Shown in pieces: positions 39,001 to 42,000 of a stretch of 47,343 nucleotides of DNA; position 1 is the first letter of the stretch; each line of letters begins with the position of its first letter. The position numbers were made by a program. The DNA is from Escherichia phage 1720a-02, in sequence record KF030445.1; one strand, 5' to 3'.

Positions 39001-42000
39001 TCATTCCGGTTTTGACTAGATTGAAAGCGAGCAGGATAGAGAATCTGCATTTCGCTGATTTCTCCCTTAAAAAAATTGGCCAGACGCTCTGCCAGATCGA
39101 TAGATGGAATTTGTTCCAGTCTCTCAATACGACTCAGCGTCGCTGGATTAACCTGAACACCCGCAGCAACATGCTGCAAAGTAAATCCGTGCGCCTTACG
39201 CACATTTCGTAATGGTGATTGCATATAACCTCCACATATTGCGTGATAAGCATATTATTTCACGCAAATATTTTGCGCAAGTTGATTTGCTTAACGCGCA
39301 ATAAAGAAATGTAATAAACGCATGAACATAGGAAATCGAGTCAGACAACTTCGCCAGGCGAAGAACATGAAAATCGCCGATCTCGCTGAAGCAATAGGAG
39401 TGGATGCGGCGAATATCTCACGCCTGGAAACAGGTAAGCAGAAACAATTCACTGAACAAGCCCTGAGTAATATTGCCAGGAGCTTAGGTGTTGATATTGC
39501 AGATCTCTTTACCTCAGACTTCAAAAGTAATACTGTATGTAAAAACAGTACTGGTGAGGATGTTGCGCAGGTGAAGGATGTATTCCGTATTGAAATGCTG
39601 GATGTCAGTGCCAGTGCGGGAAATGGCCTTATCCAGGGCGGTGATGTCATTGATGTGATTCATGCCATTGAATACATAACTGATAATGCTGTATCGATGT
39701 TTGGAGGACGACCAGCCAATCACATTAAAGTTATCAACGTTCGTGGGGACAGTATGTGTCCAACCATTGAGCCAGGAGATCTCATCTTCGTTGATATCAG
39801 TATCAATCAGTTTGATGGGGATGGTATCTATGTGTTTGGTTTTGATGATAAAATTTATGTCAAACGACTGCAAATGATACCTGACAAACTACTGGTGATT
39901 TCTGATAACCAGATTTACCGTGAATGGGGAATTACCAGCGAAAACGAACACCGGTTTATGGTCTTTGGGAAGGTCTTAATCAGTCAGTCACAAACCCTTA
40001 AGCGACACAATTAACCCCGACCTCCTCATCAATTAGCCACCAGAAGGTGGCTTTTCATCACCCATCATATTGCGCATCTCGCAACAAAACACTTGCATAA
40101 TGCGCAATTTCATTTTATCTTTCTTTCCAGACCAACAAACAAGGTCCTAACAAAATTTGGTTGTAACACGGCGTATGGCACATGCGTCGTTAGCGGTCTG
40201 GGGACGTTAAAGGGGACAATCCACTCCTTGCTCGGGCAAACAAACCAGGTAGCCGGAATGTGCAAGTCAATGAGGATGCTGATAAGACGCCTAACCAGCG
40301 TGGCGATTCGGTTTGACGCCTGGGAAGAGACCAGGACGCAACGATGAGAGCATTGATGAGCAAGGCATAAGTGCTGGTTCAATTCCAGACAGTCCCATTC
40401 AGATGGGAGGGTTGGGCAGGGAAAAGGTCCGTTCGATTCGGACACCGGCAATGCTCTCAGCGTTGTGGTGAATGCGCAGGCTGATGCGCGAAAGACATTG
40501 CAGCTATTGCGGAAAAGAGCTGTTCGGCGGGGCAATCAAACGCCCGTGAGAGTCTGAAATAACCGCAAGCCGGAGATCAGCACCGGTCACCACAACAGCC
40601 ACTGCTTTGGCAGTACCAGTTTGTACACTTGCTTCCGGCTGGTACCGCTCTTTTTACAAAACAGAGAAGAGCATCACCGGACGACGGGCTCATAACCCAA
40701 TCCATCCGGGCGGCTGCCACCGCAGGTGTTCTTCTCTGTTTTGTGGAGAAACCAACCGACCTTGCAGGGTCGATATGATGAGGAGCAACAAAATGGCTAG
40801 CGAACGCAGTACTGATGTGCAGGCATTTATCGGGGAGCTGGACGGCGGCGTATTTGAAACCAAAATCGGCGCTGTTCTCAGTGAAGTCGCTTCCGGTGTG
40901 ATGAATACGAAAACCAAAGGTAAGGTCTCGCTCAACCTGGAAATCGAACCATTTGATGAGAACCGTGTGAAAATCAAACACAAACTCTCATATGTTCGCC
41001 CGACTAACCGCGGGAAAATTTCCGAAGAAGACACCACCGAAACTCCGATGTATGTCAATCGCGGTGGTCGCCTGACTATTCTGCAGGAAGACCAGGGACA
41101 ATTACTGACTCTTGCCGGTGAACCTGACGGAAAACTCCGCGCAGCAGGTCATTAATATCGTTCTTAATTAACTGATTATTTATCTCATCACTGAATATCT
41201 TTATATAGTGAGGACTTATTATGTCTCAGAACTTAGACGCAACCGCAATTAATCAAATCCATGCCCTTATTTCTGCTCAGGGTGTTAATGAAATTATCAG
41301 TAAGATTGGTGCCGATGCTGTGGCATTGCCTGAGAATTTCCGCATTCATGATCTGGAAAAATTTAATTTAAATCGCTTCCGTTTCCGTGGTGCGCTTTCC
41401 ACTGCCAGCATCGATGACTTTACCCGTTATTCTAAAGATCTTGCAGATGAAGGCACCCGCTGCTTTATCGATGCTGATAATATGCGTGCCGTCAGTGTGC
41501 TTAACCTGGGTACTATTGATGAACCAGGTCACGCAGATAACACCGCCACTCTCAAACTGAAAAAGACAGCACCGTTCTCTGCTCTGTTGTCTGTTAATGG
41601 CGAGCGTAACTCCCAGAAATCACTGGCAGAATGGATTGAAGACTGGGCCGACTACCTTGTGGGCTTTGATGCGAATGGTGACGCCATTCAGGCAACAAAA
41701 GCGGCTGCGGCAGTCCGTAAAATCACGATTGAAGCAAACCAGACCGCTGATTTTGAAGATAATGACTTCAGCGGCAAACGCTCCCTGATGGAGTCTGTCG
41801 AAGCGAAGACCAAAGACATTATGCCAGTGGCATTTGAATTTAAATGCGTTCCGTTTGAAGGTCTGAAAGAACGTCCGTTTAAATTACGCCTCAGCATTAT
41901 CACTGGCGATCGTCCTGTACTGGTTCTGCGCATTATTCAGCTGGAAGCGGTGCAGGAAGAAATGGCTAACGAATTTCGTGATCTGCTTGTTGAGAAATTC

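Follow-up and report, generated by a model that had tools for sequence, protein, structure and literature searches.

In Escherichia phage 1720a-02, the interval between the left operator and promoter (OL/pL) and the gene yfdP consists of conserved, structured RNA modules arranged in series on the + strand; it is not junk, nor the site of a lost N gene. This interval (40116-40793) lies in a stretch of 47,343 nucleotides (nt) from sequence record KF030445.1, which was analysed at its full length and is called the window. The leader is probably a non-coding RNA locus of modular build, transcribed from pL on the + strand. One portion has been published before, as the small RNA (sRNA) sRNA-17. The architecture of the family, its likeness to transfer RNA (tRNA), its residence in tRNA arrays, its presence in lambda and P1 and its host-RNA-like inserts appear not to have been described previously. 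Because no Rfam model exists and a full-text literature search for the core sequence retrieved no paper, the family appears undescribed; the covariance model R1 introduced below fills this gap in Rfam. The apparent puzzle of a missing N gene is replaced by a concrete, testable RNA architecture.

Modules of the leader

Folding of 40116-40793 against shuffled sequences yielded z = -5.9 for the + strand and z = -2.8 for the - strand. The leader comprises the following elements.

40151-40337, + strand: module A, a structured 5' module conserved in 38 distinct sequences
40338-40461, + strand: helix P1 enclosing the variable insert VR1 (covariation, fold)
40374-40388, + strand: T-arm-like hairpin 1 within VR1, CUGG-UUCAAUU-CCAG (CTGGTTCAATTCCAG)
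40427-40443, + strand: T-arm-like hairpin 2 within VR1, GUCCG-UUCGAUU-CGGAC (GTCCGTTCGATTCGGAC), read directly
40462-40596, + strand: domain II, a four-arm tRNA-like cloverleaf (covariance model R1, minimum free energy, covariation)
40462-40654, + strand: sRNA-17 homologue, consisting of domain II, 3' module and terminator (primer mapping)
40610-40655, + strand: intrinsic-terminator-like hairpin with U-tract (fold, sRNA-17 3' end)
40656-40795, + strand: degenerate second unit (weak R1 alignment, fold)
40685-40698, + strand: CGGGCUCAUAACCC, which mimics the anticodon arm of initiator tRNA, in the second unit's loop (metY identity)

Module A has the consensus ACGGCGUAUGGCACAUGCGUCG...GCGGUCYGG[var]CCRGGUAGCCGGAAUGUGCAAG...CGUGGCGAU.CGGUGUGACACCUCGGAAGAGACGAGG. 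In all 38 distinct sequences it comes directly behind a promoter, a tRNA or an earlier unit; in P1-like plasmids it begins about 5 nt past tRNA-Ile. Its RNAalifold consensus contains 6 compensatory pairs. Upstream of the common leader, relatives carry at least four unrelated promoter/operator types. Helix P1 is formed by a 5' strand (40338-40355) and a 3' strand (40449-40461) that continues into 40462-40466, with VR1 (40356-40448) between them. Folded by itself, the P1/VR1 segment gave z = -4.1.

The closing helix of domain II, GUUGUGGUG/CACCACAAC, pairs 40462-70 with 40588-96 and is followed by the linker AAU. Arm P3 (GCGCA-GGCUGA-UGCGC, 40474-89), the variable arm VR2 (40490-40568) and arm P4 (GCCGG-AGAUCAGCA-CCGGU, 40569-87) complete the cloverleaf. 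In model R1, domain II scores 94 bits (E 1e-18), and the minimum free energy structure of 40462-40596 folded alone is the same four-arm cloverleaf. The terminator downstream has the stem GCAGUACCAG / CUGGUACCGC (40610-19 with 40639-48), the U-tract UCUUUUU and a folding energy of -16 kcal/mol; relatives show a perfect stem, GGCGGUACCAG. A hairpin plus U-tract occurs downstream of units in 65 of 126 distinct flanks, compared with 23 of 126 in shuffles.

The second unit is formed by a P1-type helix, ACAAAACAGAGAAGAGCAUC / GGUGUUCUUCUCUGUUUUGU (40656-75 with 40725-44), and a further hairpin at 40757-40772. With filters off, R1 aligned it end to end, if weakly (13 bits, E 0.11). The inverted repeat at 40655-40744 described in an earlier note on this DNA is real; it folds as a helix of about 24 bp (z = -5.4) and is the P1 of unit 2. 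The 3' end of the unit holds the Shine-Dalgarno sequence and start codon of yfdP, and the block is kept upstream of yfdP in most matching E. coli genomes.

The 6-nt motif CACAAC is found on both sides of the unit. Across the family, the middle strand GUUGUGGUG covaries with two partners, the 5' flank CACAAC and the 3' strand CACCACAAC, so two mutually exclusive helices seem to be selected. The competing strands are 40338-40342 / 40462-40467 / 40591-40596 in unit 1 and 40656-62 / 40738-44 / 40787-93 in unit 2, where the analogous pattern reads ACAAAAC / GUUUUGU / ACAAAAU. Alternative pairings in both units suggest a putative folding switch.

Repeating unit and covariation

A common scaffold emerged from side-by-side reading of tRNA-adjacent and phage loci. 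The unit consensus is 5' CACAAC-A-GGUAAGAGCAUUG [VR1] CAGUGCUCUUUCC-GUUGUGGUGAAU-GCGCA GGCUGA UGCGC-[VR2]-AAGCCGG AGAUCAGCA CCGG-CCACCACAAC 3'. The family was retrieved with an exact pattern of 23-25 nt. An exact-pattern scan of viral contigs returned at least 120 loci, with 76 distinct versions among the matches listed. Model R1 was built on 39 units, and its search recovered 72 copies in 64 loci, some of them outside the exact-pattern retrieval.

Helix P1 showed compensatory changes in 10 of 13 inner pairs on the 39 trimmed units and double changes in 12 of 13 inner pairs across the family. One U.G pair in it is conserved, which would read as an A.C mismatch on the opposite strand; the + strand is therefore marked as the RNA strand. 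In the alignment of R1 hits, 94% of cells are paired, double changes occur in 25 of 32 pairs and covariation extends to all four helices. The observed covariation was reached in 0 of 500 shuffles, and slid controls fell to 33-53% pairing. A lack of structure conservation, considered in the earlier note, is not what these values show. As for the RNA-family search proposed there, RNA folding and the new model R1 revealed structure; Rfam, searched at gathering and E-value thresholds with the window and 13 related loci, contains no family that covers the leader.

Closing helices with independent compensatory changes have been found in lambda (GUUGUGCUG/CAGCACAAC), in P1-like plasmids (GUUGUGAUG/CAUCACAAC) and in the STnc100-type copy (GUUGCGGUG/CACCGCAAC). 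The loops of P3 (GCUGA) and P4 (UCAGC) are mutually complementary and hardly vary, without covariation, which suggests a possible contact between the two. The near-invariance of the core across bacterial orders calls for a sequence-specific partner.

Identity with sRNA-17

An ArcA-modulated prophage sRNA, sRNA-17, was described from E. coli K1 RS218 as a 193-nt RNA of an mEp460-like prophage, by 5' and 3' rapid amplification of cDNA ends (RACE) and Northern blotting (Front Microbiol 2020, PMC7719688). It was mapped onto the window through the published primers and probes (Table S2 of PMC7719688). Fourteen of 15 map with 0-3 mismatches, all within 40155-40791. The exception, Prom_F, falls in the swapped VR1 insert; it lacks a site in the window and maps only to mEp460 (L006). 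The primer pair labelled "full length" maps to 40461-40493 (+) and 40623-40654 (-), and domain II with the terminator is accordingly identified as sRNA-17. The RNA is assigned to the + strand, since both the Northern probe and the gene-specific primers for 5'-RACE are antisense to it. The span 40462-40654 is exactly 193 nt and the published alignment rows end in ...caccacaac, which together point to a 5' end at 40462. We infer that the sRNA-17 homologue begins with the first base of the closing helix and terminates within the U-tract.

The leader thus contains an sRNA that was mapped experimentally in a sister prophage, and the body of this RNA is domain II. The structured regulatory RNA that the earlier note had listed among its options is borne out by the conserved covarying modules and by the mapped sRNA-17 within them (PMC7719688). 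The published RNA derives from the same locus and strand of a sister mEp460-like prophage, and the window copy differs in carrying another VR1 insert, the T-arm version, just upstream. It was presented as an isolated novel sRNA without an Rfam homologue. The cloverleaf, the family and the surrounding modules were not recognised, nor were the links to tRNA arrays, lambda, P1 and STnc100. Replacement of about 40487-40604 of sRNA-17 by a cassette raised yfdP about 96-fold and yfdR as well (PMC7719688, Table 1). The rise of yfdP fits a cis-acting barrier in the leader.

Likeness to tRNA and residence in tRNA arrays

Domain II is tRNA-like in architecture and context and is not a tRNA. It shares with canonical tRNA a four-arm cloverleaf with paired ends, a placement in arrays on the same strand and short spacers; it differs in that a large variable arm stands in for the anticodon arm. 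Within 2 kb of distinct units, 49 of 49 tRNAs are on the strand of the unit. At five loci a tRNA begins 7-13 nt after the closing helix, and spacers of 1-13 nt separate tRNA and unit in L135, L099, L178, L151, L049 and L124. A tRNA-Gly of a Massilia prophage ends 1 nt before the module, which is present there without P1. In Salmonella phage SPN9TCW a genuine tRNA-Arg(UCU) starts exactly at the expected start of domain II, with ...CAGCGUU before the boundary and GUGGCAUUAGC... after it. This tRNA has the same flanks and is followed by the same 3' module as other units. Some family members end in CACCAC-A-CCA, resembling an encoded discriminator plus CCA. RNase P cuts a tRNA precursor at the first base of the acceptor helix. 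The 5' end deduced for sRNA-17 would coincide with this type of cleavage position.

ARAGORN in standard, relaxed, intron and transfer-messenger RNA (tmRNA) modes found nothing meaningful in the leader, with noise under relaxed settings; in the whole window, ARAGORN and the Rfam tRNA model detected only three tRNAs, at 30233-30484. The P4 loop reads AGAUCAGCA or has a variant sequence with CAGC at its end, and true T-arm hairpins occur in VR1, outside domain II. A decayed tRNA, proposed earlier for the interval, holds insofar as a tRNA-like cloverleaf occupies tRNA slots and inserts carry tRNA pieces; it does not hold as a decaying gene, since the units form a conserved family of their own.

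The stable RNAs rnaC and rnaD of T4 are, like the domain II RNA, encoded among phage tRNAs; neither was matched by R1. Identity with tmRNA was rejected, as ARAGORN reported no tmRNA and VR2 lacks a conserved open reading frame (ORF). Weak Rfam matches to tmRNA_permuted/beta_tmRNA (E 0.03-0.8) are located just upstream of units and not on them: L008 1060-1232 (T1-like), L009 1195-1393 (Ackermannviridae) and L003 2289-2394 (P1-like plasmid).

Distribution and relatives

A BLAST search of 5,426 complete E. coli genomes found some part of the leader in 2,663 and at least 80% of it in 454. The exact 23-nt core occurs in 54 species-representative genomes, mostly of Enterobacterales, and also in Aeromonas, Marinobacterium, Martelella and the Burkholderiales Janthinobacterium, Massilia and Undibacterium. 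Core loci outside the Enterobacterales (L135, L158-L163, L172, L147, L159, L178 and others) are usually flanked by tRNAs or odd tRNA-like genes; Undibacterium has two core copies. Three matches in metagenome-assembled genomes (Geobacteraceae, Acidobacteriota and Desulfonatronovibrio) are of doubtful binning and may be contaminants, because their flanks look like those of enterobacterial phages. The core was present in 163-212 phage records and in 282 plasmids, mostly P1-like. A stretch of about 40 nt is 90-100% identical across lambdoid, T1-like and Ackermannviridae phages.

Two gene neighbourhoods recur. About 60 loci have a repressor upstream and yfdPQR downstream; about 30 have Q upstream and lysis genes downstream. 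The late leader of lambda (44786-44941; L131 987-1142) matched R1 with 50.5 bits. The lambda member is located just after tR', and its start overlaps the annotated orf-64. In P1-like phage-plasmids, leader blocks lie beside tRNA genes, about 80 nt past tRNA-Thr and directly past tRNA-Ile. Three R1 matches fall into an unannotated gap of about 1.1 kb after tRNA-Thr in these plasmids (L003 2920-3816 and L004 2985-3200). Only 1 nt separates the tRNA from the first copy in this gap; the third copy coincides in part with an STnc100 match below threshold. Module A directly follows tRNA-Ile in such plasmids and precedes ban/dnaB. A further leader block is located just upstream of tRNA-Arg in SPN9TCW.

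The window itself contains a gene for STnc100.

28426-28638, - strand: STnc100 sRNA gene in the late region (Rfam RF02076, 142.7 bits)

This gene is the second-best R1 match in the whole window (18.7 bits, E 0.007). Conversely, a copy in a P1-like plasmid (L003 3618-3816) reached 58.5 bits in R1 and 37.8 bits in the STnc100 model, which is under its cut-off. On the leader itself (40000-40900), Rfam gave no STnc100 match even at E <= 10. STnc100 has a layout resembling that of domain II, ..UGGUG-AAU-hairpin-variable region-CCGG hairpin-CACCA.., with paired ends. It differs from the leader unit in lacking the P1/VR1 hairpin and in its loop and stem sequences. Domain II is probably a distant relative of STnc100 and belongs to a very widespread phage family found in tRNA arrays, lambdoid late leaders and pL leaders. 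STnc100 and PasD have been reported as Hfq-bound prophage sRNAs encoded near Q (10.64898/2026.05.13.724894). Like the leader family, they are borne by phages and are encoded close to Q and the late leader; Hfq binding is reported only for STnc100 and PasD. A single structural family now joins sRNA-17, and probably STnc100/PasD, with the lambda late leader and the surroundings of P1 tRNA genes, two regions previously without an assigned function.

Other ornate non-coding RNAs of phages and prophages, GOLLD and ROOL, are likewise often encoded near tRNA genes and form loop-loop contacts (PMC12286853, PMC5737381). The leader RNA differs in its Proteobacteria hosts and in being modular rather than monolithic, and is not known to form multimeric cages. 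The Rfam models of GOLLD and ROOL had no match in the window or the 13 related loci at E <= 1-10.

Proposed maturation and function

A longer precursor would be made, on induction from pL. In the lysogen it may arise by read-through from the repressor gene or from a weak internal promoter claimed in the literature. The machinery of tRNA 5' maturation, most likely RNase P, would cut it at the first base of the acceptor-like helix, and the RNA would end at the intrinsic terminator 40610-40655. The product would be a stable tRNA-scaffolded sRNA with the VR2 arm as cargo. In cis, terminator and processing site would limit the transcription and the intact mRNA that reach yfdP-yfdQ-yfdR. In trans, the RNA may act as an Hfq-type regulator, by analogy with STnc100/PasD, or as a decoy. 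Taken as a whole, from modular leader to processing, tRNA-scaffolded sRNA and limitation in cis, this explanation is the best one available and is held with moderate confidence. Prediction of sigma70-like promoters returned none anywhere in 39900-41300. Because such a site is absent and the exchangeable VR1 lies upstream, a 5' end made by processing is favoured over initiation.

Several points weigh against this account. ARAGORN and the Rfam tRNA model do not recognise domain II as a tRNA, and CCA is not encoded in the window copy. P4, the equivalent of the T-arm, has a 9-nt loop without the T-loop consensus (UUCRANY). The role of RNase P is one that we infer; RNase III cutting of the long P1 duplex, or RNase E, could also produce the 5' end. 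An ArcA-regulated promoter at this end is claimed by the authors of sRNA-17, and the yfdP increase seen in their mutant may reflect polarity of the inserted resistance cassette (PMC7719688). Module A alone has a fold no more stable than those of shuffles (z = +0.4). Since retrieval relied on the exact 23-25-nt pattern, part of the core conservation follows from the search itself, and alignment A2 favours the R1 structure because it was fitted to the model. The link to STnc100 consists of weak scores (E 0.007) and a shared architecture.

If maturation by RNase P is true, the leader RNA would be the natural equivalent of the engineered tRNA scaffold, and phages would have a new route by which early leaders, late leaders and tRNA operons yield stable RNAs for regulation or as decoys. 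In engineered tRNA scaffolds and in the tRNA-miRNA chimeras of gammaherpesviruses, a tRNA-like fold provides processing and stability to a cargo. Their resemblance to the leader family is an analogy of concept only. A wider proposal, which we put forward tentatively, is that of an ancient phage-borne scaffold matured by the host tRNA machinery. It would express exchangeable cargo, including mimics of host tRNA and rRNA as decoys or regulators, and the lambda late leader, the tRNA-flanking DNA of P1, STnc100/PasD and sRNA-17 would be one system.

Variable inserts

VR1 and VR2 are swapped as cassettes among scaffolds. Near-identical leaders differ in VR1, which measures 95 nt in the window and 38 nt in mEp460. 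The two T-arm hairpins reported earlier were confirmed and lie in VR1, and hairpins of this kind were observed 7 times in 44 distinct inserts, compared with 0.05 expected. T-arm 1 has 16-17/17 identity to the T-arms of phage tRNA-Met, tRNA-Ser and tRNA-Phe (tRNA positions 49-65). Both stems covary, with CAGG/CCUG for T-arm 1 in L082 and GUUCG/CGAAC for T-arm 2 in L079. In unit 2, CGGGCUCAUAACCC is identical to the anticodon stem-loop of E. coli metY over 14 nt, and to 16 of 18 nt with flanks. This anticodon-arm mimic is also present in the unrelated VR1 inserts of L019, L088 and L046. One VR2 type matches 16S rRNA 254-282 at 26 of 29 positions, and VR2 of L148 contains a near-complete tRNA-like sequence. 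A resemblance to host stable RNAs was seen in the VR2 type of L063/L047/L053/L065/L093, in VR1 of L128 and in VR2 of L148. Another variable insert has a 15-nt identity to 16S rRNA near position 1068.

These inserts raise the alternative that the units serve as scaffolds on which decoys are displayed. The T-arms, the initiator anticodon arm and a 16S helix would imitate parts of host tRNA and rRNA and so titrate host enzymes or tRNA-targeting anti-phage nucleases. The strong enrichment of T-arm hairpins in VR1 and the match of T-arm 1 to phage tRNAs agree with this, as do the recurring tRNA-fMet anticodon stem-loop, the 16S-like VR2 type, the tRNA-like insert of L148 and the reshuffling of inserts among scaffolds. 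However, most inserts, including VR2 of the window, have no likeness to the host RNAs tested. A partner protein is not known, the units are not consistently accompanied by genes for defence or anti-defence, and the fragments could be recombination debris of neighbouring tRNA genes. As the main function of the leader, decoy display is therefore considered unlikely, and the tRNA-scaffolded sRNA is preferred.

Antitermination

An RNA-based antitermination element had been suggested for the leader, together with a boxA-like sequence. A cis-acting RNA antiterminator of the put type would modify RNA polymerase and allow it to pass terminators of the early-left operon in a phage without N. The setting is suggestive, as the leader is immediately 3' of OL/pL in a lambdoid phage lacking an N gene and has a terminator ahead of yfdP. 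The pL leader and the pR' late leader are the two commonest contexts of the family, and so extreme a conservation of the core would be consistent with its contacting a host machine that is itself conserved. The put RNA of HK022 and the annotated putL-like RNA of HK639 are also structured RNAs directly after pL in N-less lambdoid phages. They are about 70 nt long with two stems, whereas the leader family extends to tRNA arrays and to the region after tR'. Neither blastn nor R1 found anything in HK022 or HK639. The lambda copy follows tR', where Q already antiterminates; the module is also present in tRNA arrays and in lytic T1-like and Ackermannviridae phages; and the mapped RNA ends at its own terminator. 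The antitermination reading is thus improbable. An "M3-like RNA" of HK639 is an unrelated hairpin.

The boxA-like string CGCTCTTTTTACAA is present on the + strand at 40646-40659, and presumably resembles the rrn boxA consensus UGCUCUUUAACAA. A boxA role is not upheld. The string comprises the 3' stem and U-tract of the terminator and runs into the 5' arm of the next helix. As the 3' end of sRNA-17 maps into the U-tract, it acts as a terminator tail.

Two further RNA classes were considered and rejected. A ribozyme (hammerhead, twister or HDV-like, HDV being hepatitis delta virus) was sought by eye: CUGAUG is present in the P3 loop, but the rest of a hammerhead core is missing and is not conserved. 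For a riboswitch, a three-way junction and kissing loops by a terminator were noted; placement in tRNA arrays and the lack of an Rfam match speak against it.

Mosaic origin

The leader is a mosaic. Its blocks match tRNA-flanking sequences in P1-like plasmids and SPN9TCW, mosaic joints fall inside the conserved scaffold, and CACAAC flanks the unit on both sides. All this would agree with non-functional debris, made of decayed tRNA genes and recombination linkers and kept only through homologous recombination between phages. Such an origin is nevertheless very improbable in view of the compensatory changes in all helices and the strand-specific U.G pair, the exact 23-nt core from Enterobacterales to Burkholderiales, the uniform strand of the 49 neighbouring tRNAs and the discrete RNA with defined ends made from the locus (PMC7719688).

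The comparison with CPS-53 that had been proposed is uninformative, because the leader is absent there. CPS-53 of K-12 (L189 3240-3612) shares only the last 25 nt or so before yfdP, TATGATGAGGAGCARCAAAATG, and its upstream neighbour is yfdO on the opposite strand.

Coding potential

No credible gene exists between the cI-like repressor and the ATG of yfdP, in agreement with the earlier note, and 40116-40793 contains no conserved ORF. The statement that only ORFs of 8-29 codons occur is incorrect. An ORF of 84 codons with a TTG start is located on the + strand and one of 141 codons on the - strand. A Pfam search of the leader ORFs gave zero family matches. Long stop-free frames of 87-149 codons occur on the - strand of many relatives, and among different relatives these read the conserved core nucleotides in all three frames. 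The 84- and 141-codon ORFs are regarded as non-coding because they lack a Pfam match and the core is read in three frames. For the same reasons, a conserved protein gene in close relatives, which the earlier note had considered, is not indicated.

ORF inspection and Pfam revealed no Arg-rich N-like protein downstream of pL. A conserved AUG in the core would open a peptide MRRLMR..., and the peptides from this codon are random in length (median 22 amino acids (aa); 18 members end after 6 aa). An N region or remnant, also suggested earlier, is thus not found, as there is no N-like ORF, no Pfam match and no conserved peptide starting at the conserved AUG. Coding by the interval, whether through a protein gene that a frameshift hides or through a small N-like peptide, is scarcely credible: the long - strand frames, the hypothetical proteins annotated there in mEp460, Bas79 and some E. 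coli genomes and the conserved AUG favour it, but the three-frame reading of the core, the random peptide lengths and the absence of any Pfam family stand against it.

"Hypothetical protein" coding sequences are annotated over the RNA modules as mEp460_036/037 (L006 2552-3105) and Bas79_0054 (L008 1195-1575), and a "frameshifted" coding sequence was annotated by PGAP at L002 2362-2672. The annotations in these three loci are probably spurious, and the same probably applies to many hypothetical proteins annotated over such RNAs.

Phage setting

The window represents a lambdoid prophage type of the mEp460/SfV/Stx2a_1447 kind. The leader is bordered by the following features.

39322-40014, + strand: cI-like S24/HTH repressor gene (gene calls and Pfam)
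40033-40056, + strand: terminator-like hairpin AGCCACC-AGAA-GGTGGCT followed by TTTTC (read from the sequence)
40070-40121, + strand: OL/pL region with two operator-type inverted repeats and a putative promoter
40780-40785, + strand: Shine-Dalgarno sequence GAGGAG of yfdP
40793, + strand: ATG of yfdP, the next annotated gene in near-identical genomes

The gene order repressor, leader, yfdP, yfdQ, yfdR is that of mEp460. A cro-like gene and a gene of the CII family are encoded on the strand opposite to the repressor. The hairpin at 40033-40056 lies directly 3' of the repressor gene and is absent from the list of a simple terminator scan; it is predicted to be the terminator-like end of the repressor transcript.

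The OL/pL repeats described earlier are supported. Copies of the 15-bp operator-type repeat TTGC-N7-GCAA are located at 40070-40084 and 40093-40107. The only other copy in the phage, at 39287, sits in the cI-cro gap, which makes the OL/pL assignment sound. The putative pL promoter would consist of TTGCAT, a 17-nt spacer and TATCTT. These hexamers are our own reading; a consensus promoter scan did not find them.

On the - strand, a truncated stx2A ORF of 168 aa (29635-30141) is directly followed by an ORF for an APH(3')-III-type kanamycin resistance (28831-29625). With this arrangement, the window looks like an engineered stx2::kan Stx phage and not like a wild isolate. Also on the - strand, Rfam identifies a C4 antisense RNA (37875-37962) beside isrK (37987-38063). 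The pair is located downstream of a ymfL/CII-like gene, and an ORF of 387 codons overlaps both. At 37875-38063 this lambdoid phage has an immI-like region for antirepressor control.

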